A stretch of DNA of 64,000 nt from a virus. The notes under the pieces were generated by a model. The model was not told where the DNA came from, ran no database searches, and was given only the letters and a program-made list of their open reading frames with translations. The stretch lies in the IMG/VR virus record IMGVR_UViG_3300025133_000027, positions 32,001 to 96,000 of that record; one strand, 5' to 3'. Positions 1,998-25,628 of this stretch are shown here, in pieces (the first letter of the stretch is position 1; each line of letters begins with the position of its first letter). The translations under genes were made by a program, and so were the position numbers.

Positions 1998-2010
1998 ACT
2001 ATTTACTATA
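1998..2010 (+). promoter_or_regulatory. Candidate phage late-promoter motif (A)CTATTTACTATA
   Basis: Directly abuts the ATG at 2010 with no SD. The same 12-mer CTATTTACTATA occurs at 50452-50463 upstream of gp25. Confidence 0.4.
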
Positions 2011-2759
2011 TGAAGAAACTTAAACGAATTTTAAAACTAGCAGAAATCAATTATGTCAATGCCAGAAACCCACATAGACATATTCCAAATAGAAATATTA
2101 TCCGTGCCAATACTATGTTTATGCTGTCCATTCTAAAAGCTAATATCCAAATAAGAGACATATTCGGTTTACATATAGGAAGAGATGAGTGGCTTAAGTC
2201 AACATTTGATATTGTAAAACAAGTTTCATTATTATCAAAATCTAAAATAAAAAAATTCTTAGGGAATGGTGCTTTCGGTGCAGCTTTTGAACTTGACAAC
2301 GGCAGGGTTTTGAAAATCGGGCGTATCCTGGATCAGGAAACCTCAAGAAAAAGTTATACTGGTATCCTATATGGTAAGTATGATGAACCAGAATTTAAAG
2401 ATATTTCAGTCAAAAATACGCTCCCGGTATTTGATAGTGGCGTCATTAAGAGACCTAGCAATTGGATTAACCGTAATCTTCAATGGTCTGAAATACCTCT
2501 CCTGAAGATGCTAGATTGGGAACAAAAGGAAGCCTGGGACGAGTTATCTGATCTACTTCATTTTATTGATGACCCTCAAGAAATTGCGAGTGTAATCGAT
2601 ATCATGGACACCAATATATTAGATAAAATCGGTGATAAAGAATCTATCATCAAAGCATTAGAAGCAACCTGCACTCTTGAGGGCGATCTTGGTGATGTTC
2701 ATGCAGATAATGTAGGACAGTTTATTCAGTCGGGAGAATTTGTCGTATTCGACAACTAA
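2010..2759 (+). CDS. Minimal protein-kinase-like domain protein (paralog 1)
   Basis: LGNGAFGAAFEL.NGRVLKI Gly-loop/Lys, DVHADNVG catalytic loop, ends VVFDN. Confidence 0.75.
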   Translation: MKKLKRILKLAEINYVNARNPHRHIPNRNIIRANTMFMLSILKANIQIRDIFGLHIGRDEWLKSTFDIVKQVSLLSKSKIKKFLGNGAFGAAFELDNGRVLKIGRILDQETSRKSYTGILYGKYDEPEFKDISVKNTLPVFDSGVIKRPSNWINRNLQWSEIPLLKMLDWEQKEAWDELSDLLHFIDDPQEIASVIDIMDTNILDKIGDKESIIKALEATCTLEGDLGDVHADNVGQFIQSGEFVVFDN

Positions 2760-2770
2760 ACTATTATACT

Positions 2771-3637
2771 ATGAATGATCTAAAAAGAATATTATTGTTA
2801 GCAGAAATTAACTATATTGATGACAGAAATCCTCAAAGACAGGTTCTAAACAGGAACAACATTCGCTCAAACACATTGTATCTCTATAAAAAGCTTTTAC
2901 ATAATTTTCATCTTAGAAAAGTTTTTAGAATCAATAGTCCAAGAAATGTAAATCTAGATGTTGACGAGTACAAGAAAGAAATTCTTAAAGTTATATTTAA
3001 TATTGTAATTCAAGTCCCTCTACTTTCTCAATATAGAATCGTAAGCGTCCTTGGATCTGGTGAACTTGGGTTGGTTCTTGAAATAAAGAATGGACGAGCA
3101 TTAAAGATTGGATACGAGACAGCCTGGGAAACTCCCAAAGAGAAAAGTGTTGCTATCACATATAATATGAATGGCGAAGATCCTGATATCCTTACTTTAA
3201 ATAAAAACCTGTTACCTATTTTTGGAAATGGAACAATCAAAGTAGATAAGAAGTCTACTCTATACTTCAAAGATCGCTATGCTTTTGGGAAGGAAGGCTC
3301 TAATATGTATTGGACAGAGATTCCTCTCTTGCAAATGCTTTCTATTGATGAAAAGCACATCTGGGATAGCGTTCATTATAATACAAAGACATATCTAATG
3401 AATCTTGGAAAGGAACATTTGTTTAAAAATCCTCAAGAATTAGAATCTGAAATTATTGAAGATCTTATTAAATGGTCTACAACTAGGACACTTAGCACAG
3501 ACGATCGACAGGTTCTCTCAAGAATGATGAAAGCTGTTCTTGCTCAGGTTAAAGTTGATGGCCATTTTAAAGATGCCCACGGTGACAACGTAGGTAAGTT
3601 TATTCAGTCCGGTGATTATGTAGTCTTTGACAATTAG
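2771..3637 (+). CDS. Minimal protein-kinase-like domain protein (paralog 2)
   Basis: LGSGELGLVLEIKNGRALKI, DAHGDNVG, ends VVFDN; N-terminus similar to paralog 1. Confidence 0.75.
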   Translation: MNDLKRILLLAEINYIDDRNPQRQVLNRNNIRSNTLYLYKKLLHNFHLRKVFRINSPRNVNLDVDEYKKEILKVIFNIVIQVPLLSQYRIVSVLGSGELGLVLEIKNGRALKIGYETAWETPKEKSVAITYNMNGEDPDILTLNKNLLPIFGNGTIKVDKKSTLYFKDRYAFGKEGSNMYWTEIPLLQMLSIDEKHIWDSVHYNTKTYLMNLGKEHLFKNPQELESEIIEDLIKWSTTRTLSTDDRQVLSRMMKAVLAQVKVDGHFKDAHGDNVGKFIQSGDYVVFDN

Positions 3638-3644
3638 GAGAAGT

Positions 3645-4508
3645 ATGGATAACTTAGAAAGAATATTGCGTTTAGCCGAGATCAACTATGTTTCTGGAAG
3701 AAACCCTCAGAGGTATGTTCCGAATAGGAATATCCTTAGGTATAACTTCAACAGAATTATTGAAATATCAAAAGACCATCAGGCAAATACTTTTGCAAAG
3801 AATCTAGGAATAGCTGCAATAGAAAAAAGGGATCCATATGGCTGGATGGGTCTTTCTTATGAAGCAACTCCCAAGAAGGTGTTCACATTACTAACAAAAA
3901 TTCCATTGCTATCACAATACAAGATCGAAAAGATGCTCGGAATGGGATATTTTGGAGTTGTTTTTAAACTATCTAATGGTAGAGCACTTAAAATTTCTAG
4001 AGAAATCACGCAAGATTATTCAGAGAATGGTAAGTATGTTGGGATAACTTATGGAGATGATAAAGTCCATCAGATGTCAGTCTCAACTTTTGCTGTTTTT
4101 GATCATGGAGAATTTGATGAGGAAGGACTAAAAGGATCATGGTCCGAAATTCCGCTTATAGAACCTCTTAAGAGAAATGATAAGGAGCTCTGGAGACAAA
4201 CTGGTTTTGGTTTCGGCTATCTAGCACGGAAACAAAAAATTGCATTTCATAACGCCATGGATAGTGATGACGAAGATAAGATGATGCATGAAATATTCAA
4301 CCTAGGAATTCCGAAGTATCAAACTGTTTGGGTTGGTGGTCCAGAATATAAAGACTATGCAGAAACATATGGTATAAGAAAAACTCGAAATATGATCAGA
4401 GCTTATATGACAAGATATAAAATTGATGGACACGTAAATGATGCTCATGATGGCAATGTTGGAACACTAATCCAAGATCCAGACGTTTACGTTATTTTTG
4501 ATAACTAG
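3645..4508 (+). CDS. Minimal protein-kinase-like domain protein (paralog 3)
   Basis: LGMGYFGVVFKLSNGRALKI, DAHDGNVG, ends VIFDN. Start moved to ATG 3645 (AGGAG SD; matches paralog leaders). Confidence 0.75.
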   Translation: MDNLERILRLAEINYVSGRNPQRYVPNRNILRYNFNRIIEISKDHQANTFAKNLGIAAIEKRDPYGWMGLSYEATPKKVFTLLTKIPLLSQYKIEKMLGMGYFGVVFKLSNGRALKISREITQDYSENGKYVGITYGDDKVHQMSVSTFAVFDHGEFDEEGLKGSWSEIPLIEPLKRNDKELWRQTGFGFGYLARKQKIAFHNAMDSDDEDKMMHEIFNLGIPKYQTVWVGGPEYKDYAETYGIRKTRNMIRAYMTRYKIDGHVNDAHDGNVGTLIQDPDVYVIFDN

Positions 4509-4516
4509 GGATAATT

Positions 4517-6505
4517 ATGACAATCAAACTTATCATAGAAAGTAAAAAACTGCTTCTTGAAAAAACACTAGAACAAGTCGAAGAACGCTTTAAATCGAAG
4601 AGATTTCTTAGGCTCATGGATAAACTATATGGCGATGATCCAGATACTATGCAGTCATACCATATGAGCTCTATCACAGTAATCCGAAGACAAATTCCTA
4701 ATGACATACCAGAGAAGGATAAAGCTGAAGCTTTAGATTGGCTTATTAGCCAAGTTATCAAAGCTCAAAAAATACCAGATGTTTATAGTGGCTTCCTAAA
4801 TGTTAAACAAGATCTAGAGTTTTTCTATCTAATCAAAAACTCAGGGCAATCAAGATTCTTGAGCGTTAAGTCTCTTATGAAGGTTGCTCAATGGGATGAA
4901 CTTGAGGATATCGTTGACGATGCCCAGCCTAAGTACGAAGAGTGGGATAATGAAAAGCAAGAGAAGGAGCTTGCTAAAAACGGCGGTGGTGAAGGTGTTA
5001 ATCATATTGTAAAAGACAATCCTGATTGGGATGTTTATATCCCTGAAACTCAATTAGCTGCACGGTTTCTCGGAAGGGGCACAAATTGGTGTACAGCAAC
5101 CAATCCAAAGACTTCAAGAAACTATTATGATCAATATCATACAGAAGAAAGTCCTTTATATATCTTTATCAGCAAAGCTAATCCCACTGATAAATATCAG
5201 TTCTCATACGCTAAACATGATTTTGCTAATAAATCAAATAAACAAGCCAAAAGACCTAAATTTCTTGAATTAAATGAAATAATTAAAAATATTGGTGAAC
5301 CTATAATCACTTCGTTTAATCTTAATAAAGCGAATAAATATGTTTTTAAAAAATTAAAAAATGGTGGCTATTCGTATTTTGTGGGTAATGTAAAGAAGTG
5401 GTATTTAAAAGGAGACCTCCATCGTGAGGACGGACCTGCTTTTATTGATTCTGATGGTTCTCAGTTCTGGTATTTAAAGGGTAAACTTCATCGAGAAAAC
5501 GGTCCTGCTGTTGAATATCAAAATGGGGAAAAGGAATGGTATCTGAAAGGTAAGCGCCATAACAGAAATGGCCCTGCTATAGAATATGTGCATGGTGGAA
5601 AAAAGTGGTTCATAAATGGTATGCAGTATACCGAATCAGGTTTTAATTTAAAAGAATGCAAGGGAAGTAAAAATATGAAGAGGCAAGAACCAAAAGAACT
5701 TAACGAATCAAGTTCAATGATCGGAATGACTATCAGAGAAGGTTACGAACTTCTTAAATCTTTTGAAGGAAAAAATCTTATCTTCTTTGATACCGAAACT
5801 ACTGGCTTGCATCCGAAAAACTCACAGATTACAGAAGTTGCTGTATTTGTTGGTCATCTTCCAAGCTGGTCTGAGGGTATAAATGAGTCATCATTTATTA
5901 AATTTCATGAAAAAGCAAAGCTTACTCAGCAAAGTCTTGGTAAACTTAAAGAAAAAATGTATGGTGATAAGACTTATCGTGAACTACTTCGTATGACGAA
6001 TTATGGTCAACACGGAAAGAAGTATCTTCTTGAAGGAGTAATGCTAAAAGATCTAAAAGACTTCATTGAACAGTTTGAAGATCCAGTTTATGTAGCTCAG
6101 AACGCACAGTTTGATATGAAAATGATAAACACAAGATTAGCATCATATGGATTGGAACCTTTAAACAGGGCTCCTGTTCTTGATACTAAATCAATTTTGT
6201 CTTTCTTCTTGAAACCAATATTTATGACATCAAAAAAGAATACAAGAACCTATGATGTTAGCACAAGGGTTCCCGAGAAACGTGGTTCTATGTCAACAAG
6301 TCTCGGTGATATAGCAGCCGCTTTCGAAATCTCAAATGATAACTGGCACTCCGCTGACGCTGATGTTCTTATGATGATTAATGTGTTGCAACAAGCTGTA
6401 AAAATATTCGAACTTGAAGAGTATGATATAGAACAAGCTAATCAACTCGCAAGCGGAGAGCAGAAGAGTTATGTAGATAAGGGGAATAGGCACTATGTCA
6501 ATTAA
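4517..6505 (+). CDS. Modular protein: GTNWCT domain + LHREDGPA repeats + DEDDh 3'-5' exonuclease
   Basis: LGRGTNWCTA; three W-x-x-x-G-x-x-H-x-x-x-GPA repeats; FFDTETTG, AQNAQFD, HSADAD exonuclease motifs. Confidence 0.8.
   Translation: MTIKLIIESKKLLLEKTLEQVEERFKSKRFLRLMDKLYGDDPDTMQSYHMSSITVIRRQIPNDIPEKDKAEALDWLISQVIKAQKIPDVYSGFLNVKQDLEFFYLIKNSGQSRFLSVKSLMKVAQWDELEDIVDDAQPKYEEWDNEKQEKELAKNGGGEGVNHIVKDNPDWDVYIPETQLAARFLGRGTNWCTATNPKTSRNYYDQYHTEESPLYIFISKANPTDKYQFSYAKHDFANKSNKQAKRPKFLELNEIIKNIGEPIITSFNLNKANKYVFKKLKNGGYSYFVGNVKKWYLKGDLHREDGPAFIDSDGSQFWYLKGKLHRENGPAVEYQNGEKEWYLKGKRHNRNGPAIEYVHGGKKWFINGMQYTESGFNLKECKGSKNMKRQEPKELNESSSMIGMTIREGYELLKSFEGKNLIFFDTETTGLHPKNSQITEVAVFVGHLPSWSEGINESSFIKFHEKAKLTQQSLGKLKEKMYGDKTYRELLRMTNYGQHGKKYLLEGVMLKDLKDFIEQFEDPVYVAQNAQFDMKMINTRLASYGLEPLNRAPVLDTKSILSFFLKPIFMTSKKNTRTYDVSTRVPEKRGSMSTSLGDIAAAFEISNDNWHSADADVLMMINVLQQAVKIFELEEYDIEQANQLASGEQKSYVDKGNRHYVN
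5395..5640 (+). repeat. LHREDGPA-type protein repeats (3 units + cap)
   Basis: WYLKGDLHREDGPA / WYLKGKLHRENGPA / WYLKGKRHNRNGPA / WFINGMQYTE. Bounds approximate. Confidence 0.85.
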
Positions 6506-8915
6506 GATTATATTAAGAGAAAGTAAAAAACTTCTTCTTGAAGTAAAATTAGAAGACGTTAAGAAGAGATTTAGATCTAAGAAATTCCTTCGAGTTTTTA
6601 ATGAAGAATATATGAGAAATGACGAAGAGAATTACCCAGGGGATGAACCATACGCATCCCATGAGGACTTTATAACTGATATTTCCACTGTGATGTTGGA
6701 AGTAATCCCCCATGATATACATGAATCTGCGCAAGCAGAGGCTCTTCAATGGCTTATTTCTCAAGCTATATTAGTCAAAGAATATGATTTCAGAGGAACT
6801 TTTTTTAAGAAAGATATTGAAAACTTTTATAAGATAAAAAACGGAAGATCTCAGTTTCTAGAAGAAAAGAGTTTAAATAATATTGTTGCATTTGCTCACT
6901 TAAGAGACATAATTGAAGAGGCTCTTCCTAAATATCTTAACTGGATCCGAGAAAAAGCTGATCTGTCAACAAAGGGGAATGGTGTCAACCTGATTCATCG
7001 AGGTGCTGTTTGGGAAGTATTCATTCCAGAAACTCGGGGAGCTGCTATCCGACTTGGTGCCGGCACTAACTGGTGTACTGCTGCTAGGCCAGGAGCACGA
7101 AACGAAAATCTGTATGATCATTATCATAGTGAAGAAGCTCCACTATATATCTTTATCAACAGAAAAGATCCTGCTGAGAAATATCAATTTGCTTATACCC
7201 ACGATGAGTTCATGGACAGGACCAATGAAGATTGCAGAAATACTTCTAAATTCTGTGATATGAATGAAATCATCAAAGGCCTTGGTCCAAGGATGATTAC
7301 CTCACTTAACCTCGCAGAAGCAAAAAAACAAAAATATAAAAAAATTGGGAAAGGTTACTATCTTATTGAAAAAGAAAAAGGTAATATTGCTTATGTCAAC
7401 AAACATGGCTATCATAACGAAGACGGTCCTGCCGTGGTTTCCAATTATGGTGCAGAAAAAGAATGGCATCAAAACGGGAAACTTCATCGTAAAGACGGGC
7501 CGGCTTTCATACGAAGAAAGCCGAAACTTGAAATGTGGTTCCAAAATGATATGAGACACCGAGAAGATGGTCCTGCTTTAATCAGCAGTTCAGGCCAGGA
7601 AGAGTGGTATCTGAAAGACAAGAGACACCGAAAAGATGGTCCCGCTTATTCTACAGATACAAAAGAAATATGGTTTCTGCATGGAGAAAGGCATAGAGTC
7701 GGAGGCCCCGCTCTTACTGTACACAAAGAGCTTGTCAGCATGAGTAGAATCCTCCACGCTTTCTATCAAAACGGGAAACTCCATAATGATGATGGGCCTG
7801 CCGAAGTTTATTACACTGGTGAAAAGAGGTGGTATAAAAACGGAAACCTCCATAATGAAAACGGCCCTGCAAGAATTGCTTCAAACGGGGTTTCGACTTA
7901 TTATCTTGATGGCGAACGAGTGCCAGCCCCAAACGAAGATCCAGCTAGGTTTAAAATCTTAAAAAAATATCTTGGGTTTGGGAAACCACCCGAGCGTGAT
8001 GACCCAAAAAGGAGACTTAGGTGGCTCGATGAAGCTCAACTTCCAGCAAAAGAACCAATTGACCAAGATGACCACCCATTATTCCCAGAAGAGGCAAACC
8101 GCAATATTTTAAGACATAACGTTAAATTTATCTTTCACGAACTTAAAAACTCAAAACATGCAGTGAGGACTGGTTTGCCATTGATAAACGATATGTTTTT
8201 CTTTGGCATGGCAGATGGCCTTTACGACCAATTGCGGGATATCCACTATGAAATTGCGGATATCGAAACTTCAGATCCATATTTTCATGAAAAAAGGGAG
8301 TCTTTAAGAAAAGAATATTCTAAAAAATGTTTTAAGACTGTTTTTAACACTGTTGTTCAAACCCCTCCCCTTAATAGCTCTAAGATTGTAAAACATCTTG
8401 GATCTGGTGCAAATGGAGTAGCTTATGAGTTAGCTTCTGGTCGTGTCTTAAAGATTGGCAGAAGTGAATATGGAAAAGACTCTGGCCTCGCTCGTATGAC
8501 TTTTGGTGATGAAGAAGACGAGTATTTTAAGAACGTTTCAATTAGCAAAAACTTTATGCCGGTGTTTGCCGCAGGTAAATATAAAGAACCTGTTGGTGGA
8601 AATATCTCTTGGAGAGAAATACCTTTCTTCAATATGCTTACAAACACAGACAAGAAACATTGGAGTATTCTTAAAAAACTAATGGATATTCTTATTAATA
8701 GACAATTTGATGTTCTCAACTACAAACCAATTCAAATCATAAACTTAGCAAAACATTTTAAAATCCCAATCAACAGCTCTCTTGAGACAAGTGAAGGAAT
8801 GATCCGAGCAATGCTTAAAGCTCTGGAGGTTTATGGAGACCTCCATGACGCCCACATAGATAATGTTGGGACCCTAGTTCAAGATCCTTCTACTTATGTG
8901 ATCTTTGATAACTAG
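6495..8915 (+). CDS. Modular protein: GTNWCT domain + LHREDGPA repeats + minimal kinase domain (paralog 4)
   Basis: LGAGTNWCTA; seven H-x-x-x-GPA repeats; LGSGANGVAYELASGRVLKI, DAHIDNVG, ends VIFDN. Confidence 0.8.
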   Translation: MSIKIILRESKKLLLEVKLEDVKKRFRSKKFLRVFNEEYMRNDEENYPGDEPYASHEDFITDISTVMLEVIPHDIHESAQAEALQWLISQAILVKEYDFRGTFFKKDIENFYKIKNGRSQFLEEKSLNNIVAFAHLRDIIEEALPKYLNWIREKADLSTKGNGVNLIHRGAVWEVFIPETRGAAIRLGAGTNWCTAARPGARNENLYDHYHSEEAPLYIFINRKDPAEKYQFAYTHDEFMDRTNEDCRNTSKFCDMNEIIKGLGPRMITSLNLAEAKKQKYKKIGKGYYLIEKEKGNIAYVNKHGYHNEDGPAVVSNYGAEKEWHQNGKLHRKDGPAFIRRKPKLEMWFQNDMRHREDGPALISSSGQEEWYLKDKRHRKDGPAYSTDTKEIWFLHGERHRVGGPALTVHKELVSMSRILHAFYQNGKLHNDDGPAEVYYTGEKRWYKNGNLHNENGPARIASNGVSTYYLDGERVPAPNEDPARFKILKKYLGFGKPPERDDPKRRLRWLDEAQLPAKEPIDQDDHPLFPEEANRNILRHNVKFIFHELKNSKHAVRTGLPLINDMFFFGMADGLYDQLRDIHYEIADIETSDPYFHEKRESLRKEYSKKCFKTVFNTVVQTPPLNSSKIVKHLGSGANGVAYELASGRVLKIGRSEYGKDSGLARMTFGDEEDEYFKNVSISKNFMPVFAAGKYKEPVGGNISWREIPFFNMLTNTDKKHWSILKKLMDILINRQFDVLNYKPIQIINLAKHFKIPINSSLETSEGMIRAMLKALEVYGDLHDAHIDNVGTLVQDPSTYVIFDN
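7392..7920 (+). repeat. LHREDGPA-type protein repeats (7 units + cap)
   Basis: HNEDGPA, HRKDGPA, HREDGPA, HRKDGPA, HRVGGPA, HNDDGPA, HNENGPA. Bounds approximate. Confidence 0.85.
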
Positions 8916-8935
8916 AGACTACTAAACAGAGTTCA

Positions 8936-8950
8936 AATCCTCGCAGGATT
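8936..8950. terminator. Small hairpin between convergent genes
   Basis: aatcct-cgc-aggatt in the 42-bp gap between the 8915 and 8958 stops; short stem. Confidence 0.3.
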
Positions 8951-8957
8951 ATAATCT

Positions 8958-9248
8958 TTAAAAAAGGGGATACCTTTCTATCTTATTTAGATAGAGATTA
9001 TCTAAAAGTTTTAATATACTTGAATTTTTAAATATAACATTCTGGCTCTCAAATCCGGCAGTAATATAATGACAATAGCACATGCCCATATCAATCACAA
9101 AAATTACTCTCTGACGTTCATTAATAGTGAATACAAGCCCATTGATTCTTTGACTATAATCTAAATAGGTCCTTTTATTATGACTCTCACTCGGGCAAAC
9201 AAGTAAATCATTTCGATAAAGATAACTAAGCACTGATTCTTTTTTCAT
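8958..9248 (-). CDS. Hypothetical protein
   Basis: 96-aa ORF overlapping the upstream minus-strand ORF by 4 nt (coupled). Confidence 0.5.
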   Translation of the reverse strand: MKKESVLSYLYRNDLLVCPSESHNKRTYLDYSQRINGLVFTINERQRVIFVIDMGMCYCHYITAGFESQNVIFKNSSILKLLDNLYLNKIERYPLF

Positions 9249-9448
9249 GATTCTCGAAAGACGGGGTATTTCTTACCCGGCTTGGTAATTCTCGAAAGCT
9301 TTGCACCAGACCAAACCTCAGTAGGACCTGTCGAAGGTATTCCATACACGGAATAATAATCGAAAACAGGGTTCCACTGGACTACTAATAAGGGCTTGTC
9401 ATGCTGATTGTTTCGAAAGCTAAATTTTGGATTAGAGCTACTATACAT
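9245..9448 (-). CDS. Hypothetical protein
   Basis: 67-aa ORF whose start overlaps the ligase stop codon. Confidence 0.5.
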   Translation of the reverse strand: MYSSSNPKFSFRNNQHDKPLLVVQWNPVFDYYSVYGIPSTGPTEVWSGAKLSRITKPGKKYPVFRES

Positions 9449-10617: not shown

Positions 10618-10633
10618 TGCCTCCTACTCTATT

Positions 10634-10662
10634 AGTATACTAAGATCTAATATAAGAGGCAA
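10634..10662 (-). promoter_or_regulatory. sigma70-type promoter TTGCCT-17-TATACT for the ligase operon
   Basis: Plus strand agtata (10634-10639) and aggcaa (10657-10662); AGGAGG SD follows. Confidence 0.6.
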
Positions 10663-10683
10663 TAGAGTCCCAACTTTTTATTT

Positions 10684-11016
10684 TTATTTTCTAATAATAG
10701 GAAACTTTCCTACTATCTCCAACCTATTATCATTCAGAGTGTTTTTAAATCTTTCGAAAGAGATGTATTCTTGGTAACAATATCTTTCTTCTATATCAGC
10801 TTCTTCATCCCAAGCAGAGAAGTGAAGCATGATTGCATTTCGCTTTCTTCTATTAACGACTACCTTATCTAATAATAATATTTTTTTATAACTAAACCAG
10901 AACATAGCCTCATTCGGTTTATCTCGGTATATAGTACCTACCAAAGCCTTAACTTCCTTCTCTCTTAAAAGCTTTTCTGTTTTAGACAAGTTTTTGTAGC
11001 TTTCTACATATTTCAT
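10684..11016 (-). CDS. Hypothetical protein
   Basis: 110 aa, AAAGGAGAA SD upstream, TATAAT at 11045-11050 on the minus strand. Confidence 0.6.
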   Translation of the reverse strand: MKYVESYKNLSKTEKLLREKEVKALVGTIYRDKPNEAMFWFSYKKILLLDKVVVNRRKRNAIMLHFSAWDEEADIEERYCYQEYISFERFKNTLNDNRLEIVGKFPIIRK

Positions 11017-11106
11017 ATCATTCTCCTTTATTTCATCTTCCTTTATTATAGCCTAATAAAAACTTTTTTGCGATGGCCATGCAACCTTTTGACTACTTAT
11101 AGTGTG

Positions 11107-11328
11107 ATGAAGATGTGCATTAAGGTTGGGGCAGTTTACGTTCTTGAATCATGGCAATCAACTATTGTTATCACTGATCTATGTAGTGAAAATATGGTTT
11201 CTTTTCAGGTAGTAAACGGTAGTGATAAGAATAAATATAGTCACACCGTTTCCTGGTTTATTGATGGGATTCACAAAGGTAAATTATTTTTCAAATTTAA
11301 AATGCCAGTTTTTTATTCAACGAAGTAA
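11107..11328 (+). CDS. Hypothetical small beta-rich protein
   Basis: Likely start ATG 11107 just after an ACTACTTATA motif; MKMCIKVGAVYVL N-terminus. Confidence 0.45.
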   Translation: MKMCIKVGAVYVLESWQSTIVITDLCSENMVSFQVVNGSDKNKYSHTVSWFIDGIHKGKLFFKFKMPVFYSTK

Positions 11329-12130: not shown

Positions 12131-12166
12131 TTTTCCTCCTATTTATTATGACTAAAACTTTTACAT

Positions 12167-15457: not shown

Positions 15458-15458
15458 T

Positions 15459-17561: not shown

Positions 17562-18212
17562 ATGAATGCAAATGAATATAACAGAAAAAGGCTTAGAAGC
17601 GGAGATATTCCAGATAGTGTAATAACTAAGATGGTAGAGCTTTGGCAAGAAGAGCACGGTCTTGATGTCGATGGTAAGCTTGGCCCGATAACTTTAAAAT
17701 CAATTGGAGCCGAGACAACTTTCGAACCTGATTGGACTACTGATTCTAAGAGAAAGTGGGCAGAAGAACTTTACGGAGCATTCCGCTTTAAGAGCCAACC
17801 TAACGGTAGAATCGTAATTTCATCAACATGGGTCAGAGAAAACATTGTAAGAGTAGAATTACATAACGGAAAGAAGGTTCGCATCAATAAGAAGATTGCA
17901 GAACACTTCAAGACTACTTTTAAAGAAGCATGTGAGAAATCTGGCTATACACCAAATTCTGTTCAAACATTTGTCCCGAGACACACCCTCTGGAATACTA
18001 GCAAATCAGTAAGTGCTCATAGTTGGGGTTGTGCTGTGGACTTTGATCCTCCAAAAAACCCAATGGGCGGAAAAATCAAGAAAACAGGCAGGCCTTCTCT
18101 TCTCAGAACACATCCAGAATTTGTCAAGGTTTTCAAGGATGCTGGCTGGACTTGGGGCGGTGATTGGCGCATGAAAGACGATATGCATTTCGAACTCAGG
18201 AAGGAGCTTTAA
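17562..18212 (+). CDS. Endolysin-like: PG-binding domain + M15 family peptidase
   Basis: WQEEHGLDVDGKLGPIT; SAHSWGCAVD; WGGDW...DDMHFE. Confidence 0.85.
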   Translation: MNANEYNRKRLRSGDIPDSVITKMVELWQEEHGLDVDGKLGPITLKSIGAETTFEPDWTTDSKRKWAEELYGAFRFKSQPNGRIVISSTWVRENIVRVELHNGKKVRINKKIAEHFKTTFKEACEKSGYTPNSVQTFVPRHTLWNTSKSVSAHSWGCAVDFDPPKNPMGGKIKKTGRPSLLRTHPEFVKVFKDAGWTWGGDWRMKDDMHFELRKEL

Positions 18213-18217
18213 GATCC

Positions 18218-20074
18218 ATGCTGACGACCATCAACGATAACAGTCAAGAGAAATATGCTGAAATTCACAAGGAGGAACTTGATAGCTTCTTACCTTATTG
18301 TCAAGAAGAATTAGGTTTTAAGAAACCTGTCAGTATTAACTTTGAATCAGACGAAAACAACTCTAAAGAATTATTTGGCAAAACTGCTTTTTATAATCCA
18401 AAAGAGATGTCAATTACTATTTATACTAGTAAAAGGCATCCTAAAGATGTTTTTAGATCAATGGCTCATGAGTTAGTTCACCACTGCCAGAATTGTGATG
18501 GACGGTTCGACAACATGACAATGGAAGATGGATACGCACAAGATAATAAACACTTGCGCGACATGGAGAAGGACGCCTATCTAAGAGGCAATCTATTACT
18601 AAGGGATTTCGAGGACCAACAAAAAATGAAAAATAACAAAGACTTAAAAATTGAACAAAAGATCAACAGCTCTCTCGCTGTATTACTTGCCGAAGCTGTT
18701 ACTCAGAGTATGGGTAATGACGATATGTATAAAGATCAAGCACCTGCTCCAGAGCTTGGAAGTGTTGCACCTAAATGGCGCAAGTGCTCTGGAACTTTAA
18801 GAACTGGTTGCAGAGGTCGTAATGTTGAAGATCTTCAGATAAGATTACAAAAACTTGATTATCTAACAAAAGAAGATATCGATGGTCACTTTGGCCGTGA
18901 TACAACAATCGGAGTTAAAGGTCTACAGATTGATAACGATGTTCCTCAAGATCAAGTTGATGGAGTTTTTGGAAAAAATACCCTAGCACTTCTAAAGAAA
19001 CTAGAAGGAATTCGTGGGGTAGATGCTAACGACAGAATTGCTCGTGCTGATATCGGTGGAGCCGAAGCCTCTGCAATGAATTCTATGTCTAAGCTTGGCA
19101 GGAATGCAAAAGCTCCCAGCAGTGTTCCAGCTAGTCCAAATCCTAGTTCCAGAGTTGACCTTAGCAGGACCGCCAGTGGCGGTAGACCAATGGATGTTCA
19201 ACTAGATGACAATCCAAATCTTCGTGAGTCAAAAGAAAGAGTTCGTGGCTTGATTCAAAAGAAGCCAATGGATGCATTAAGGATTTTAAATTCATTTGCT
19301 AAAAAAGGTGGTATCGAGAGGGATGAGTTAAATTATGCTCAAAAATTAATAGAAAAGCACGGGAAGCAGGTCTTGAGGCAATTCCCGAACCTACGAACTG
19401 CTTTAAAGAATAAAATTGGTAAGCCAGAAAACTATACGAAATTTAAACCATCAGATAAGATTCCAAAAGATGGCACTAGAGGACCAACCTCTGGCAAGTC
19501 TAGCATTGATACAGATGGCACTAGAGGACCAACCTCTGGCAAGTCTAGTGAGCTACCAGCCAGCCGTCCTCCTAAGGCTTCTCCTGATAGAAAGAAATCT
19601 AAGTGGCGCAAGTGTTCTAAAAATTATAAAAGAGGATGCAGCGGAGATATGGTTAAAACCATTCAGAGCCACCTTGGTTTTAAAGAAGAAGACATTGACG
19701 GTAAATTTGGCGGGGTTACTAAGAGAGCTGTTGTTAAGTTTCAAGAAAAACATGGTCTTAAAACTGATGGTATTGTAGGTGAAAAGACCTATAAAAAATT
19801 GAGTCAAATAGCTTTAGCAGGTAAACCAAAGGCGAGTCCAAAGGATAAACCAAAATCCTTACCGAAAAAGCCTGCTCCAAAGAAGAGACCAAATTCCTCA
19901 CCAGAAGCCCCTCCAAGATCTGGGCCGGGAGGGGGTATTCGCCGTAATGGAGTGCCACTACCACCGGCGAATGAGGAAAAACACCCAGTTGGAAACGGAC
20001 CTAGACCAGTAAATGAAAACCAGAATTTCTTAAAGAGTAGGTTTACTCGCCTATTGAAAACAGAAAGATCATAA
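18218..20074 (+). CDS. Zincin-like metallopeptidase + two PG-binding domains + Pro/Lys-rich linkers
   Basis: RSMAHELVHH...MEKDAY; DIDGHFGRDT/VDGVFGKNT; DIDGKFGGVT/TDGIVGEKT. Start moved to ATG 18218. Confidence 0.7.
   Translation: MLTTINDNSQEKYAEIHKEELDSFLPYCQEELGFKKPVSINFESDENNSKELFGKTAFYNPKEMSITIYTSKRHPKDVFRSMAHELVHHCQNCDGRFDNMTMEDGYAQDNKHLRDMEKDAYLRGNLLLRDFEDQQKMKNNKDLKIEQKINSSLAVLLAEAVTQSMGNDDMYKDQAPAPELGSVAPKWRKCSGTLRTGCRGRNVEDLQIRLQKLDYLTKEDIDGHFGRDTTIGVKGLQIDNDVPQDQVDGVFGKNTLALLKKLEGIRGVDANDRIARADIGGAEASAMNSMSKLGRNAKAPSSVPASPNPSSRVDLSRTASGGRPMDVQLDDNPNLRESKERVRGLIQKKPMDALRILNSFAKKGGIERDELNYAQKLIEKHGKQVLRQFPNLRTALKNKIGKPENYTKFKPSDKIPKDGTRGPTSGKSSIDTDGTRGPTSGKSSELPASRPPKASPDRKKSKWRKCSKNYKRGCSGDMVKTIQSHLGFKEEDIDGKFGGVTKRAVVKFQEKHGLKTDGIVGEKTYKKLSQIALAGKPKASPKDKPKSLPKKPAPKKRPNSSPEAPPRSGPGGGIRRNGVPLPPANEEKHPVGNGPRPVNENQNFLKSRFTRLLKTERS
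19468..19548 (+). repeat. Two exact 36-bp direct repeats with 45-bp period (in frame)
   Basis: agatggcactagaggaccaacctctggcaagtctag at 19468-19503 and 19513-19548; encodes DGTRGPTSGKSS twice. Confidence 0.95.
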
Positions 20075-20084
20075 GGGACTATTA

Positions 20085-22235
20085 ATGAAAGTTATTATAC
20101 ACGAAAGAAAAGTGAAACCTGATGACGAGCTTCTTTTAGAGTGGGAGTGGTCTGACGTTTATGATTTTGCATCAACAGCAGGTCATTTTGCTCTTGATAT
20201 TGGAGGCTTGGCTCCTGGGGCTGGGATGTTTATTGATGGAGCAAACGCAGCTTGGTATGCCGCAGAAGGAGATTGGCTAATGGCGGGCATGTCTATCGCT
20301 GCTGCCCTCCCAGTTTTTGGCTGGGGAGCTGCTGCGATTAAACTTACCGGCAAGGGTGTTGCTGTACCTTTTAAGATTGTGCGTCAATTTGCAAAAGATG
20401 CTAAGATTTTTAATAAAGCTGTTGATAAATTTGCCAAAACAGCCGGTCTTGGTAAGGATGTCGCTAAAAAAATAAAAGACGCAGTTGCTGCTAAAATGTC
20501 AGGGAAAGCTATCAAGCCCGCTGGTAAGCTTGTCCCTTCTTCTGTTGGAAAGGAAGCAGCAAGTGTTGCAAAGAAAGAAATCAAAGAGATTAAGAAACTT
20601 TTTGATGGTGTTGTCGAGAAAATCCCTCTCCCTGACAGCTTAAAAAAAGAGTATATAAAAAGAGTTCTTGAACTAAAAAAACTAAACCTTAAATTAGATG
20701 GTCTTAAAGGCACGAAAAATTCTGCCGCAATTAGTAAGTTAACAAAAAAGATTAAAGACAAAGAAAAGGTTTTAGTTGGTTCAATGAAAAAAAATCAACT
20801 AAAAGCTGCGGATATAAAGAAAATCCTAAATTATTCTAAGGCCGGTATCAAGGCCGGCGCAAAGACGGCTGGTGACGCATCTATAAAGACTGCTGCGAAG
20901 ACTGCTGCAAAATCTGCTAAAGATGCTGCAAAGGCCGGTGCAAAGACTGCTGCTAAGGCGGCTGAAGATGCTGCGATAAAAATCAAGGATGGGCTTATTA
21001 AGTATAAAGGCAAATTACCAACAATAGATGCTGCGATAAAGAAACGTATTTTTACTTTCGTAAGAAAAACAGCTGTAAAGTCTATAAGTTTTCAAATTGA
21101 TTACCAAAGGCTCAAAGATGAGCTTGATAAAACAGGTATTACAAAATTACTAGAAGAATTAGAGATTATCGGAGGGTTGGAAGAGATCTATAATGATATC
21201 AAGGAATGGGCTTGCTCTAATTATTCGGGTTTCTTCTTTTGCGATGATTCACAAAAGGATGTTCCACCGTCTGTTGATGATGACCCCGAGAAAAAAGACC
21301 CTACTCCAGGCCCGAAAAAGTCCCCTAGGTGCGATAATAACTATTTAGAAAAAGGTTGCCGAGGTAATAGAGTTAAAACCCTCCAGCGTGTTCTTATCCA
21401 TCTTGAAGGGCCACTAACTGTCGGTCGTCGTCGCGCAGATGGAATATTTGGTGTACAAACCAAGAACGGAGTTGAAAACTTTCAAAGAAAACACGATCTA
21501 AAGGTCGATGGTATTGCAGGTCCGCGCACTTTTAAAAAGATAATTGAGTTAATTGAAACAAAACGTAATAATGATGGTAAAACCACAAAGATTAAAAATC
21601 CCGAAGCAGAGTTCGAAAAAGGAGTTGCTGGATTATCTGATAAAGAAGTAGCATCTGCTGTAGGTTCCGATGGCGATATTGAACAAGAAACTAGTAAGGG
21701 CTCAAAAAGTCCCTATTGGATGTCAAATGAATGGACTAGATTGAAGCGTTTTGACCAAAAAGGTCCCCAAGGACAGCGATTAAAGAAGAAATTGATTGCA
21801 CAAGGCTGGGCATCTACGGTAAACGAAAATGTATCTAACGACCTTAATATGGCAATCAAAAGCATTAAAAGCGCTTCGGAAAAGCTTCGTAAGAAAGACC
21901 AATCGGCCCAATCTTCTGTTGATGAGAAAATAAGTAGTTTAAAACTTGGTTCCCGTGATCCGAAAGTGAAAGAATTTCAAAAGCTTCTTGGTATTACCCC
22001 ATCTGGTGTTTTTGACTCAAAGACAAAGGCTGCTGTTGAGAAATTTCAGCAAAAACACGGCCTTGAAGTTGATGGGGAAGTCGGAAGTCTAACATTTGAT
22101 AAAATTCAAAAGGCAAGTGACCTAAGATCCTCGATTCAAGAGAATAAGGTTCATAAGAACTTTCACTATAATATTATTCAAGAAAAAATGCTAAGATTGA
22201 ACAGAGAATTAATGAAAGAATACAAAAAGGGATAA
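20085..22235 (+). CDS. Pre-toxin-TG-like domain + Ala/Lys-rich region + two PG-binding domains
   Basis: LDIGGLAPGAGMFIDGANAAWYAAEGDWLMAGMSIAAALP; KTAAK repeats; ADGIFGVQT/VDGIAGPRT; FQQKHGLEVDGEVGSLT. Confidence 0.7.
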   Translation: MKVIIHERKVKPDDELLLEWEWSDVYDFASTAGHFALDIGGLAPGAGMFIDGANAAWYAAEGDWLMAGMSIAAALPVFGWGAAAIKLTGKGVAVPFKIVRQFAKDAKIFNKAVDKFAKTAGLGKDVAKKIKDAVAAKMSGKAIKPAGKLVPSSVGKEAASVAKKEIKEIKKLFDGVVEKIPLPDSLKKEYIKRVLELKKLNLKLDGLKGTKNSAAISKLTKKIKDKEKVLVGSMKKNQLKAADIKKILNYSKAGIKAGAKTAGDASIKTAAKTAAKSAKDAAKAGAKTAAKAAEDAAIKIKDGLIKYKGKLPTIDAAIKKRIFTFVRKTAVKSISFQIDYQRLKDELDKTGITKLLEELEIIGGLEEIYNDIKEWACSNYSGFFFCDDSQKDVPPSVDDDPEKKDPTPGPKKSPRCDNNYLEKGCRGNRVKTLQRVLIHLEGPLTVGRRRADGIFGVQTKNGVENFQRKHDLKVDGIAGPRTFKKIIELIETKRNNDGKTTKIKNPEAEFEKGVAGLSDKEVASAVGSDGDIEQETSKGSKSPYWMSNEWTRLKRFDQKGPQGQRLKKKLIAQGWASTVNENVSNDLNMAIKSIKSASEKLRKKDQSAQSSVDEKISSLKLGSRDPKVKEFQKLLGITPSGVFDSKTKAAVEKFQQKHGLEVDGEVGSLTFDKIQKASDLRSSIQENKVHKNFHYNIIQEKMLRLNRELMKEYKKG

Positions 22236-22236
22236 T

Positions 22237-22590
22237 ATGAGATCTAAATTAAGAAAATTTGTTAAAATACTTGCAGAACAAGCTAATGATAAACTTACAG
22301 ACGATAACGTCGAGTATTACATTGAGCAGTATAATAAATCCGGTAAGATCAAAACTACTCATGGTAGTAAATCACCAAAAAAAGCTAAAACTGTGCAAAA
22401 AAAGATTATTAAGCCCAAACCACCAGTAGAAGTGGTAAAAGAAGTCGAAACAAGGCCATTAATTGATGAAATGACCTATGTTGAACTTAGAAAACTAGCC
22501 AAGGAGCTAGGTATGAAGAGAATTGGTCGAACTGGCAAAATGAAACTGATTGGTCTTATCAAAAAGGAGTATGACAGTAGATCTGTCTAA
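22237..22590 (+). CDS. Small protein with Rho-N/HeH-like nucleic-acid-binding domain
   Basis: C-terminal IDEMTYVELRKLAKELGM...KMKLIGLI. Confidence 0.6.
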   Translation: MRSKLRKFVKILAEQANDKLTDDNVEYYIEQYNKSGKIKTTHGSKSPKKAKTVQKKIIKPKPPVEVVKEVETRPLIDEMTYVELRKLAKELGMKRIGRTGKMKLIGLIKKEYDSRSV

Positions 22591-22592
22591 TC

Positions 22593-24650
22593 ATGGATAA
22601 ACATATACTACATATATACGAAAACCCCTTCTTAACCATGTTCGAGTTAAAGAAGATGCTTTCAGATTTATGTTATGGAAGGATCCTTTTTACTGAGAAG
22701 TTCGATGGACAGAACTTATTGCTATCTTATTCCACGAGAGACTCCTCAGTCCGTATTGCACGCAGTAATACCCACTTAAAAGCTTCAGGAATCGATCCAG
22801 AAGCTTTTAAAGCCCTATATGTGTCAAAACCACACGATTATCAGCGTATTGTTGACTCATTTGTCGATTCTGCACTAGAATTCGAGAAATTCGCTAAAAG
22901 CCTACCTATTAGAGAGCAAATTGAGCTATTTGGACAAGATAACGTCGGAAACCCTACTATCTTCTGGAATTTTGAGGTAATTAACCCTTCTGTCATCAAT
23001 CTGTTGCCATATGATGGTAGTAAGTATCTAATTCTGCATAAAACAGGCCATAAACAGACCACAGACGGCAATAAACTCGTTAAATTCTTTGTAAATGACC
23101 GTTATTACCAAAAAATGCTTAAAAAAGTGGGTATTTTCATCAAAAATAGCGAAAATACACCTTTAAAAGTTAATGAAATGCTTGATTTTAGTGAAAATAA
23201 CACTAAAAGTGCCCTAGATATGTTCCTAAATAGGCTAAAAGTGCTCCAAAATAAGCTCAAATTGGCCGAAAAAAGCACTATTTTGGAGTATTTAATAGCT
23301 ATTTTAACCCCTAAAATACAAGATGAATTCCAAATAACGCCCGAAAAGCACAAACTTATTATCAAAAGAATCATCGCAGACGCCAATCATGGCCAATATA
23401 TAACGAAACCAAAGCTTTCAGAGATCGTTTTAAACGTATCTTTGGAAGATAAGAACGATATTAAGAAGTTTTTGAGGAGTGAGAAGCCTAGAGAGTACTT
23501 TAATGACGCAATTAGGCCTCTTGAGCTCTTAATTCATGAATTTAGTGTATCTTTGCTTCAAACACTAGAAAGTCAAGTAGCAACTAATAGTCCTGAATTT
23601 AACTCTGATTTACAGCAGAAAATGAAGGAATTTGTTAAAAAACCACCTGTTGACCTTCCAAATTCATATAATAGACATATTGAGAAGATTGGTAACTTAA
23701 AAGACATCAATATCAAGCTTGAGGGCGTAGTATTCGAGTTTGATGGTCATGTATACAAATTAACAGGTAATTTTGCTCCTATTAACCAATTATTGGGTTA
23801 TCAGAAGTATAGAAAGACCTTTCAAGCTCCTACTAAAGAAGAGCTTGACTTTGAAGTTAAGAATCTTCAAGGAAAACTAGCTATTATCCCTGGTGGCTTT
23901 AAACCACCTCATAAGGGACATGTAGCCATGATTAAGCACTATCTCTCCAAAGGAGGAGCTGAGAAGGTCTTAATGTTCATGGGTAAGAAACCTAGGCCAG
24001 TAAAACACCCTGATACCCACGAAGTAGTCGATCAGATTGATTTTATGAAGGCTAAAAAGATATGGGACATATATTTAAGCAATGAAAACCTATCTCATAG
24101 GGTTAAAATCGTAGAATCAAGCGATAAAGGGCCTTTATATGATGCTTATAAATATATTGAGACAGAATCACAGTCTGGTGACTATATAATACTAGGACTC
24201 TCTGAGAAAGATCCTGAGAGATTTAAAGGTGTCAATAAGATCAAACCAAAGGGTGTTACCATACAAACAGATAATTTTAGCCCATTTAAGACATTTGCAG
24301 GCTCGAAAGTAGGAATCTCAGCTATTGATTTCAGAGATGCTATTGCGGTACAAGATAAGAAAGAAATTTTAAACTTTATACCAATTAGCTCTCATAAAGA
24401 CATGAATAAGATCTTTAAGGTTTTATTTACTAAATCTAAGGTTGAAGTTAAAAAAAAACCCAAACAAGAAAGTCTTTTGGAGTCTATTTTGGTTAGAATC
24501 ATGAAAGATATAGCCCTAGACGAGATGTCAAGCATGAGTGGGGGAGCTGTCGAAGGTTCTCCTGCTGGTGCTTGGGATAAACCTAAAGAGCCCATTAAGT
24601 TAGATGGGTATACAAAAATAATTGAGAGTATGATAAAAGATCTATTATAG
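22593..24650 (+). CDS. RNA-ligase-like domain fused to HIGH-class (cytidylyltransferase-like) nucleotidyltransferase
   Basis: TEKFDGQN (KxDG), EGVVF, YKLTG; then PGGFKPPHKGH (HxGH) and ISAIDFRDAI. Confidence 0.7.
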   Translation: MDKHILHIYENPFLTMFELKKMLSDLCYGRILFTEKFDGQNLLLSYSTRDSSVRIARSNTHLKASGIDPEAFKALYVSKPHDYQRIVDSFVDSALEFEKFAKSLPIREQIELFGQDNVGNPTIFWNFEVINPSVINLLPYDGSKYLILHKTGHKQTTDGNKLVKFFVNDRYYQKMLKKVGIFIKNSENTPLKVNEMLDFSENNTKSALDMFLNRLKVLQNKLKLAEKSTILEYLIAILTPKIQDEFQITPEKHKLIIKRIIADANHGQYITKPKLSEIVLNVSLEDKNDIKKFLRSEKPREYFNDAIRPLELLIHEFSVSLLQTLESQVATNSPEFNSDLQQKMKEFVKKPPVDLPNSYNRHIEKIGNLKDINIKLEGVVFEFDGHVYKLTGNFAPINQLLGYQKYRKTFQAPTKEELDFEVKNLQGKLAIIPGGFKPPHKGHVAMIKHYLSKGGAEKVLMFMGKKPRPVKHPDTHEVVDQIDFMKAKKIWDIYLSNENLSHRVKIVESSDKGPLYDAYKYIETESQSGDYIILGLSEKDPERFKGVNKIKPKGVTIQTDNFSPFKTFAGSKVGISAIDFRDAIAVQDKKEILNFIPISSHKDMNKIFKVLFTKSKVEVKKKPKQESLLESILVRIMKDIALDEMSSMSGGAVEGSPAGAWDKPKEPIKLDGYTKIIESMIKDLL

Positions 24651-24692
24651 ATTCTATATAGAAGAGTATATAGTATATAGGAAAGAATAAAT

Positions 24693-25628
24693 ATGAATAA
24701 TATAGAAGAAAGAGTACTTAGAACATATCTTAGAAAGAAGATTCTAAAAGAACTAAATAATAAGACATTTAGTGAAATAGAAGCTAGAAATAAAGAGAAT
24801 TTCATAAGAGATCATATAAAGGTCTTATTAGAAGAAGTAGGAACGGTACAAGGTAGATCTACTGGTATCAATGTGCTTGCTAACGTTCTAAAACAAATTA
24901 TTCCTATTGTAAAACAAGCTTATGAGCTTCTTACTACTTCTGATGAACAAAGAAAAAGTTTTAGAGCTCACATTATTCAGAACTCTATTAATACTCTAAT
25001 GAAAGTTGATGTATTATCGCCAAATACTGATGGTGGAGACCTTACCGAGCCTGTTAACCCTGAATTAGATCAGGAACCAGAGCTTCCTGAAGAAATGCCT
25101 CAAGAGACAACCCCTGAGCAAGATTTTGAAGTAGATAGTGATGAAGTAGATATTGTGGGAGGTATTGAAGATGAAGAACAGTCACTTCAGGAAGCTGCTA
25201 GCGTAGTTGTAGACCCTGATAACAATGTTCCCAATGTTGATGAGTCTGATGAAAGATTCATTGATATTGATAACTCTCAGAAAAAAATCGATGATAAGGG
25301 AAAACCAAAGGCTGATAAAATTGAGTTTGTTGATATTCAAGGAATGGATCAAACTGGTAAAGAACTTTCTCAGAAGACTATGGCTAAAATTCAAAAACAA
25401 ATTGCTGAAGCTTATGGTATGCTTTCACATATTGAAGATAGAAACCAATTTGCTGAGTATCTTGTTGCTAACCTAAAGCTTTATTTTGACCAATTTGACC
25501 AAGAAAACAATCCTGCTATTCCAGAACCACAATCTGATCAATATGACCAGATTAAATCAAGAACACAAGAACTCTCAGGCATGAATGAAAACATCGTGTT
25601 TGCAAAACTTATGAAGGCAATTGTTTGA
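24693..25628 (+). CDS. Acidic putative head/scaffold-like protein
   Basis: 311 aa with a Glu/Asp/Pro-rich middle and several LxE-type motifs. Confidence 0.5.
   Translation: MNNIEERVLRTYLRKKILKELNNKTFSEIEARNKENFIRDHIKVLLEEVGTVQGRSTGINVLANVLKQIIPIVKQAYELLTTSDEQRKSFRAHIIQNSINTLMKVDVLSPNTDGGDLTEPVNPELDQEPELPEEMPQETTPEQDFEVDSDEVDIVGGIEDEEQSLQEAASVVVDPDNNVPNVDESDERFIDIDNSQKKIDDKGKPKADKIEFVDIQGMDQTGKELSQKTMAKIQKQIAEAYGMLSHIEDRNQFAEYLVANLKLYFDQFDQENNPAIPEPQSDQYDQIKSRTQELSGMNENIVFAKLMKAIV

Follow-up and report, generated by a model that had tools for sequence, protein, structure and literature searches.

A hyper-variable gene block in a distant T4-type marine phage encodes unrelated proteins with short N-terminal leaders that may direct them into the phage head

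The stretch of DNA analysed here (the window, 64,000 nucleotides in full) comprises bases 32001-96000 of a single 176,254-bp contig, IMG/VR record IMGVR_UViG_3300025133_000027, which is 97% complete and has a G+C content of 38%. The genome is that of an uncultured marine phage, a distant T4-type myovirus of 176 kb, and encodes a gp23-type major capsid protein, a baseplate wedge protein and a gp55-like late sigma factor; the cultured phages closest to it by capsid protein are Flavobacterium phage immuto, Microcystis phage Mel-JY01 and Rhodothermus phage RM378, with identities of 43-48% over part of the protein only. Under study is a block of genes at window positions 2010-25628 in which many plus-strand proteins begin with a short amphipathic leader, here also called a tag, that ends in [LI]-x-E. 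Open reading frames (ORFs) were called genome-wide and the motif was counted within residues 2-20 of each protein. Genes are named after their start positions in the window (2010, 4517, 22593 and so on) while coordinates preceded by "genome" refer to the full contig, and a slash in a sequence follows the Glu of a putative cleavage site.

About eleven plus-strand proteins of the block are tagged (Table 1), and for these loading into the phage head is the best available interpretation. The set includes five kinase-like domains, two carriers with a common chassis and repeats, a HAD-like phosphatase, an SGNH/lysozyme hydrolase, a peptidoglycan (PG)-binding membrane-active protein, a SAP-like protein and an acidic protein, and the leader variants are MxIKLIIE/S(KKLLLE/), KRILxLAE/INY, KILAE/, KILRE/ and RLLSE/. 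For the third kinase-like paralogue the leader is read from the ATG at 3645, probably the true start, and a near relative of this protein, P0002, begins MNNLERILRLAE. Outside the window, tagged proteins were found at genome 171037 (MKKILESFRKYVED; GNAT-like by eye) and genome 164392 (a stand-alone exonuclease), and the protein at genome 123533, whose homologue L089 bears a canonical tag, was counted as tagged as well. Class-2 tags are in this genome borne by the chassis family, a kinase-like protein and a PG-binding/YkuD-like protein.

Table 1. Genes of the tagged block and the ClpP-like gene downstream of it, with positions in the window (aa, amino acids; values after family names are E-values)
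Feature	Position	Strand	Characteristics
Kinase-like paralogue 1, 249 aa	2010-2759	+	Leader MKKLKRILKLAE/INY; alignment A1: glycine-rich (G) loop LGxGxFG, VLKI Lys, DxHxxNxG, C-terminal FDN
Kinase-like paralogue 2, 288 aa	2771-3637	+	Leader MNDLKRILLLAE/INY; AlphaFold2 model
Kinase-like paralogue 3	3627-4508	+	Leader MDNLERILRLAE/INY from ATG at 3645
Carrier with exonuclease	4517-6505	+	Double-site leader MTIKLIIE/SKKLLLE/, chassis (alignment A2), W[YF]xNGxxHRxDGPA repeats, KELNE/SS, DEDD exonuclease (Pfam RNase_T 2.9e-10; phrog_192 8.7e-20)
Carrier with kinase-like domain	6495-8915	+	Leader MSIKIILRE/SKKLLLE/, chassis, repeats, internal leader-like KRRLRWLDE/AQ, kinase-like profile match at residues 502-806
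Minus-strand island	8958-12130	-	ATP-dependent DNA ligase 9448-10617 (DNA_ligase_A_M 7.8e-17) and small ORFs; outside the tagged set
Kinase-like paralogue 5, 341 aa	12226-13251	+	Class-2 tag MNFKILIE/SA
HAD-like phosphatase (FDFDDTLA) with C-terminal phrog_7595 module	14474-15457	+	Degenerate leader ...FLKPFRLLSE/AF; phrog_7595 2.1e-37, residues 240-327
Membrane protein, 150 aa	15459-15911	+	HExxH motif (MHETIHIIQQ); between HAD-like and SGNH/lysozyme genes; no family match
SGNH/GDSL hydrolase, PG-binding and phage lysozyme	15904-17529	+	33-aa N-extension ending FFKILRE/GK directly before the GDS block; Pfam PG_binding_1 3.3e-10, Phage_lysozyme2 1.3e-8, Lipase_GDSL_2 7.6e-6
PG-binding and M15 peptidase, endolysin-like	17562-18212	+	Peptidase_M15_4 1.1e-17; no [LI]xE in first 20 aa
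Zincin-like (HELVHH) with two PG-binding domains	18164-20074	+	PG_binding_1 2.2e-23; no N-terminal leader; VLLAE/AV ends the zincin domain
716-aa protein	20085-22235	+	Leader MKVIIHE/...ELLLE/WE, Gly-rich hydrophobic segment, Lys/Ala-rich region, two PG-binding domains (PG_binding_1 1e-28)
117-aa protein	22237-22590	+	Leader MRSKLRKFVKILAE/QA; weak Rho_N/SAP-like C-terminus (Rho_N E = 0.0038, below Pfam cut-off)
Ligase-like (KFDGQN) and nucleotidyltransferase (HxGH)	22593-24650	+	phrog_395 cytidyltransferase 1.2e-6; untagged N-terminus
Acidic 311-aa protein	24693-25628	+	Leader-like MNNIEE/RVLRTYLRKKILKE/LNN
ClpP-like serine protease, outside the block	28988-29740	+	Pfam CLP_protease 3.2e-32

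The original prediction, made from the letters of the window and their translations, quoted a series of motif strings at the starts and within the proteins of the block, and all 18 were recovered in the translations of the genes concerned. Within residues 2-20 the motif [LI]xE occurs in 12 of the 18 plus-strand ORFs of the block, in one of its six minus-strand ORFs and in 38 of 188 ORFs in the rest of the genome (Fisher's exact test, block plus strand against the rest, p = 7.7e-5), and when the three stand-alone kinase paralogues and the two chassis paralogues were collapsed the count became 9/15 (p = 1.6e-3). A comparison with the metabolic genes at 26.5-42.2 kb, which had been proposed as a check, gave 12/18 against 2/19 for [LI]xE in the first 20 residues (p = 5e-4) and 14/18 against 7/19 for [LIV]xE in the first 35 (p = 0.014). 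The statement that most plus-strand proteins carry leaders holds as an enrichment, with 12 of 18 by count and 11 after removal of one false positive, but not as a uniform property of the block; its counterpart, that the minus-strand genes lack leaders, is mostly correct with one exception, 10684, which has KLLRE at residue 19. The false positive is the HIYE of 22593, discarded since it belongs to the conserved start of the ligase-like domain (HMQHPF or HMWHPF in relatives). The N-terminal observation is real and has strong comparative backing.

This pattern could also arise if the leaders were mere N-terminal helices or strands of Leu/Lys/Glu-rich composition, spread by duplication and recombination and having no common function. 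The background is indeed high, 20% of the other proteins having [LI]xE in their first 20 residues, two paralogue families account for five of the ten leaders quoted, and in the chassis family conservation runs past the putative cut. That the tagged genes are clustered in one syntenic block in three genomes argues in the other direction, as do the remote relatives of the kinase-like proteins and the distribution of one tag among viral contigs, both described below, and we regard this explanation as unlikely.

The five paralogous kinase-like domains (2010, 2771, 3627, the C-terminus of 6495 and 12226; alignment A1) contain a Gly-rich loop, a VLKI lysine and a DxHxxNxG loop, and their sequence stops right after FD(N). 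Among 56 sequences of this family D268 and D287 are invariant while G97, G100, K112 and N273 are kept in at least 90%. The proteins showed no Pfam match, and a profile search of the PDB gave a match to the G-loop only. In an AlphaFold2 model of 2771, built on the 56 sequences (mean predicted local distance difference test score 80.5), the leader forms a helix that stands apart (residues 2-12), a linker of low confidence covers residues 11-17 and the core begins at about residue 28, and when this model was run through Foldseek the top matches were all protein kinases or aminoglycoside phosphotransferases, weak ones (E >= 1.6e-3, template-modelling score ~0.3). As far as the model and the conserved residues tell, the five domains are kinase-like, not proven kinases.

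A profile search with the kinase-like domain revealed 277 clusters among 1.84 billion representatives. These remote relatives were recruited by the domain profile, not by the leader, and 115 of the 145 non-self matches (79%) carry [LI]xE among their first 20 residues, where the remaining sequence of these proteins would predict 17.6%. The first Glu peaks at positions 6-9 and the second at 13-15; neither the excess nor these peaks are what composition would give. Since the leader remains N-terminal in proteins whose kinase domain begins as early as residue 13 or as late as residue 877, it is not part of the fold. Remote relatives of 12226 open with the same class of tag as this protein (MIKILIE, MIKIIVE, MIKLIIE).

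The proteins 4517, 6495 and genome 27942 have in common a virus-specific N-terminal chassis of about 290 residues and W[YF]xNGxxHRxDGPA repeats, to which different C-terminal heads are joined, a DEDD exonuclease in 4517, a kinase-like domain in 6495 and none in genome 27942. A sequence search of the PDB with the chassis was empty and the ESM Atlas returned virus-specific hypothetical clusters only, with PcfJ as a weak lead. Genome 225-1538 encodes two neighbouring proteins, of 264 and 172 aa, that consist of nearly nothing but a ~23-residue W[FY]LNGKxHREDGPA repeat, as in the chassis carriers, and that share an identical C-terminal peptide.

When the block was compared with GenBank phages by megablast zero matches appeared, and a pattern-based search of viral contigs with the kinase alignment, the 4517 protein and the chassis alignment confirmed no relatives, while the profile search did reveal them. 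A scan of IMG/VR for the first nine residues of a tag, MKL[IL][LF]ENWR, identified it in at least 120 viral stretches, often several times per contig. Among the matches listed, 145 distinct tagged proteins of marine viral contigs fall into 79 cargo clusters that cannot be linked by BLAST; these include HAD phosphatases, which form the largest cluster (22 + 7 of the 145), exonucleases, kinase-like proteins and the phrog_7595 module. Positions 10-14, which the pattern left unconstrained, keep [KQ][YF][LI][NK]E and thereby a second [LI]xE, and the commonest form of the tag is MKL[IL][LF]ENWRx[FY][LI]xE. The Leu and Arg codons of the tag vary synonymously and the upstream DNA is unconserved, so that it is the peptide that is under selection; some spread at the DNA level is suggested by the codons that dominate in the widespread tag. 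A 14-residue tag common to 79 unrelated clusters (among the matches listed) and varying synonymously cannot be explained by composition or by shared ancestry. A literature search with the tag letters gave spurious matches only.

Five complete tag-bearing genomes of 180-203 kb encode capsid proteins 56-59% identical to that of the present phage. Two of these relatives, here G3 and G5, have blocks with at least 20 tagged genes each, at 65-94.5 kb in G3 and 2.8-19 kb in G5, and both blocks end in the gene order of window 18164-26014, that is a zincin-like gene, variable genes, a ligase-like gene and a 25625-like gene. With this common end the block corresponds to a syntenic cargo region of the relatives, and it is a hyper-variable cargo region of a distant T4-like phage. 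The tag MKLLLENWR is present in the genome behind L049 and MKxTKxxLKxIIxEE in G3 and G5. Homologues of 14474, the leader of which is degenerate, are canonically tagged in both (MLKKWKQFLSE/SKLRIFDFDD in G5 and MKLLFENWRKYLNE/...FDFDD in G3). Judged by their likeness to these peptides, the leaders of the present phage are diverged (drifted) members of portable tag families. The phrog_7595 module at the end of 14474 (window 15191-15457; of unknown function) has the pattern KCNxPxR...KVVKACxxGKEKIIRFG...YWA...W and occurs alone, as a tagged 141-aa protein, in another contig (L092).

The proposal that leaders are removed inside the head presupposes a gp21-like protease elsewhere in the genome, and such a gene was located at genome 114859-115464. 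It matches Peptidase S77 (PF03420; 6.3e-24, genome 114952-115374), has 30% identity to T4 gp21 and keeps segments that align with ELNHP (here ELDHP) and SSRGLGS (identical) of T4, which we take to contain the catalytic His and Ser of gp21. The capsid protein reads ...NQAKELLRE/ASSMSAGDVEGFASVAFPIVRR, with an L-x-E site just before the conserved N-arm (KELLRE/ASSMSAGD); the site is placed as the junction of the 65-residue propeptide in T4 but 14 residues nearer to the VRR motif, and is kept almost letter for letter in five relatives. The L-R-E/A of the capsid protein is a predicted maturation site, and from homology and this conserved site we infer the specificity of the S77 protease. Taken together, the protease and the capsid site mean that the precondition of head-loading holds. 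An S77 gene was found in 6/6 complete tag-bearing genomes and in 4/9 contigs of 29-68% completeness; the 40-kb contigs with tags are fragments representing 12-26% of a genome. The leaders resemble proven cleavage sites of T4 gp21 (gp21 itself MNEPQLLIE/TW, gp24 MAKINELLRE/S) as well as the phage's own KELLRE/AS, the proteases of the relatives begin MSKKLLRE/YF, and a small core protein adjoining the protease starts with a class-3-like leader.

A 245-aa protein at genome 27197-27934, 4.8 kb before the window and directly upstream of the chassis-family gene, reproduces in residues 55-155 the propeptide and N-arm of the capsid protein (LLENQ...FPVIRRVFGK; BLAST 5.6e-12 to the capsid protein of a relative) in which the segment of the cleavage site is replaced. 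This protein may be a capsid-arm decoy or a second route into the prohead.

For the tagged proteins we favour, with a probability of roughly 0.6, that the leaders are the counterpart of the capsid targeting sequence (CTS) of T4 and serve capsid loading, cleavage and release with the DNA. A tagged protein would bind the prohead core through its tag and be cut after the leader Glu by the gp21-type S77 protease, and the protein so freed would remain in the packaged head and leave it with the DNA at ejection. In T4 foreign proteins can be loaded by a CTS of no more than 10 residues, and the propeptides that are cleaved off measure 7-65 residues (PMC3012670, PMC9026906), Alt is cut at both ends with its C-terminus trimmed by gp21 (PMC9026906), and the CTS-bearing proteins vary widely among T-even phages (PMC3012670, PMC9026906). 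Like the CTS of IPI, IPII, IPIII and Alt, the leaders described here are short, end in hydrophobic-x-Glu and stand on unrelated proteins in a phage with a homologous S77 protease, and both systems have hyper-variable cargo loci with enzymes among the cargo, Alt being an ADP-ribosyltransferase (PMC3012670, PMC9026906). The differences are that there are several tag classes here, often with two sites (MKLLLENWRxFLxE, MxIKLIIE, MKLTKSxLKQIIxEE, KRILxLAE), that the cargo families are far more numerous and larger, up to 806 aa (kinase-like, HAD, exonuclease, wall hydrolases), that some cargo rides on a common chassis-repeat carrier, and that packaging and cleavage are proven in T4 and predicted here. 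The kind of system is known from T4, while its scale, tag classes, cargo and joints set it apart as a variant.

A second comparison is offered by phiKZ, 201phi2-1 and SPN3US, the proteases of which use small-residue-x-Glu (S/A/G-x-E or A-x-E), and in which we know of no single portable N-terminal tag common to unrelated proteins. The present phage differs from this group in being a true T4-type myovirus (176 kb) whose putative sites have L/I at P3. In the group many head-internal proteins are cut after Glu by gp21-related proteases, with several redundant sites per propeptide and large enzymes among the cargo (PMC9026906, PMC5694885, PMC7411985).

Several observations weigh against head-loading. 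The proteins 13455, 15459, 17562, 18164 and 22593 have no N-terminal leader, and for the block as a whole head-loading is overstated, the M15 peptidase, the membrane protein, 13455 and 18164 being ordinary untagged neighbours. The strict tag-class patterns match only 6 of the 212 proteins of the genome, the leaders here being degenerate; five of the six map to genome 27.9-45.3 kb, the remaining one being the product of a 70-aa gene directly upstream of the S77 protease. When a tagged HAD protein was searched against GenBank phages by tblastn no match appeared, and exonuclease, HAD phosphatase and ligase-like enzymes are typical cytoplasmic phage enzymes too. A promoter-like motif common to some genes of the block, ACTATTTAT, also precedes the PhoH- and ThyX-like genes, so that late co-expression with head genes is not established and the motif was left unused as evidence for timing; it looks like a clade-wide promoter not limited to structural genes. 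Beyond residue 35 [LIV]xE is no more frequent in the block (96/6161, 1.56%) than elsewhere (1.90%), and the joint between the HAD domain and phrog_7595 in 14474 is without such a site. Finally, the tags are accompanied by a ClpP-like protease in each of the five complete relatives.

The last point bears on another explanation, in which the phage ClpP-like protease, together with a host Clp unfoldase, recognises the tags as N-terminal degrons or as signals for processing, and the tagged proteins are host-takeover enzymes of limited lifetime that act in the producing cell and are not packaged. With a ClpP-like gene in the window and, besides the S77 gene, one or two copies in each of the 5/5 complete tag-bearing relatives, co-occurrence leaves room for such a degron or ClpP-processing role. 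ClpX N-motif 2 was reportedly described by Flynn et al. in 2003 as Met, a basic residue, three hydrophobic residues, five residues of any kind and a hydrophobic one, and MKLLLENWRKF fits this motif, which is a lead and not a test. The best conserved features of the tags are two Glu, each with Leu/Ile two positions before it, which is the gp21 motif and to our knowledge not a known requirement of Clp. The tags are moreover similar to the sequences with which head proteins and the head protease begin, a Clp unfoldase was not found in the phage genome, and the copy of the capsid site in 22593 described below does not fit the degron explanation. Weighing these points we consider the degron explanation improbable. 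The ClpP-like protease itself lies among metabolic genes and has an N-terminal extension of about 100 residues.

Another possibility is that a modifying enzyme recognises the tags, as happens with the leaders of ribosomally synthesised and post-translationally modified peptides. The radical-SAM domain PF04055 is absent from the 97%-complete genome while a control search matched 14/14 reference genomes, and no other conserved candidate modifier was seen adjoining tagged genes in three genomes, which makes this explanation very improbable.

Returning to head-loading, it had been proposed that similar sites recur at domain junctions and that the block encodes polyproteins which are cut into free enzymes. 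The junction strings are present, yet internal [LIV]xE is not enriched, and with about one such motif per 64 residues a site near any joint is expected by chance; three joints are supported individually and a fourth weakly. In 6495 the segment KRRLRWLDE/AQ aligns with the leaders of the stand-alone kinases in alignment A1, with R6 and L8 invariant, and genome 27942 ends in a truncated copy of this pre-kinase segment (LNESLERVLMLARG). In 4517 ELNE/SS lies 26 residues before FDTET, and the distance from the end of the tag in stand-alone exonucleases is 25 (genome 164392) and 30 (L022). The tail of 22593, IALDE/MSSMSGGAVEG (~nt 24513-24560), resembles the capsid sequence ELLRE/ASSMSAGDVEG, and the pattern E.[ST][ST]M.[AGS]G has four matches among the 173,283 residues of three proteomes (0.06 expected), two in capsid proteins and two in ligase-like proteins. 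The tail carries a copy of the predicted capsid cleavage site and this is the best-supported internal site; if it is cut, such a copy in the tail of a cargo protein would be a case of substrate mimicry, and the C-terminal trimming of T4 Alt is a parallel. In G3 the ligase-like protein and the homologue of 24693 (residues 690-932) form one 947-aa ORF with LEE/TSSMGGG about 40 aa upstream of the joint. Weaker support comes from the zincin domain of 18164 and its homologue in G5 (KIIAE/VN), which both end in [IL][IL]AE/. The polyprotein proposal is plausible for the chassis fusions 4517 and 6495 and for 22593/24693, which may also be cut at internal sites, while most of the cargo in the relatives is tagged gene by gene.

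A broader proposition, which we put forward tentatively, is that the clade loads dozens of unrelated enzymes into the head, for injection with the DNA, by means of a few interchangeable tags that each end in the cutting motif of the head protease, and that some of the cargo is freed at retained tags or at copies of the capsid site, the cargo consisting of minimal kinase-like enzymes, HAD phosphatases, exonucleases, wall hydrolases and carriers with swappable enzyme heads. If so, the head would serve to deliver enzymes whose diversity exceeds that of the four internal proteins of T4 by an order of magnitude, a large and fast-turning first-strike set in which the minimal kinase-like family of 277 clusters is habitual cargo. 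Should the tags act like the CTS of T4, the injected proteins of uncultured T4-like phages could be predicted without a proteome, and the tags would be usable as natural handles for the packaging of foreign proteins, as the CTS of T4 already is.

Among the untagged neighbours, 18164 likely starts at 18218 and has homologues in both relatives (G5_21461 and G3_71155), of which the G5 copy also has an N-terminal leader, SRLLKE/QN. In the minus-strand island the DNA ligase ORF has a hydrophobic extension of 25 residues from its GTG start, and translation probably begins instead at the internal Met-Met pair, residues 24-25 (MMKSPVLY).

When analysing promoters, the T4 late promoter TATAAATA was found in 10 plus-strand and 15 minus-strand copies, mostly intragenic and with no meaningful placement. 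The motif ACTATTTA[TC] is strand-biased genome-wide, with 25 copies on the plus and 2 on the minus strand, and in three related phages it precedes scaffold, vertex and sheath genes by 25-50 nt; examples are found at window 1999-2007 and 12139-12147 and at genome 116634, 119878 and 125035, and it also lies ahead of some tagged genes and of the PhoH/ThyX-like genes. It is probably the phage promoter of the clade, in place of TATAAATA of T4.

Upstream of the block, the minus-strand gene at window 1138-1815 encodes a YkuD_2 L,D-transpeptidase lipoprotein (1.9e-40) and is convergent with the plus-strand gene (window 2-1141) for a 763-aa protein with PG-binding-like repeats and a C-terminal YkuD/Tlde1-like HGG...SxGC motif. 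This arrangement suggests an editor of peptidoglycan cross-links paired with a possible counterpart.

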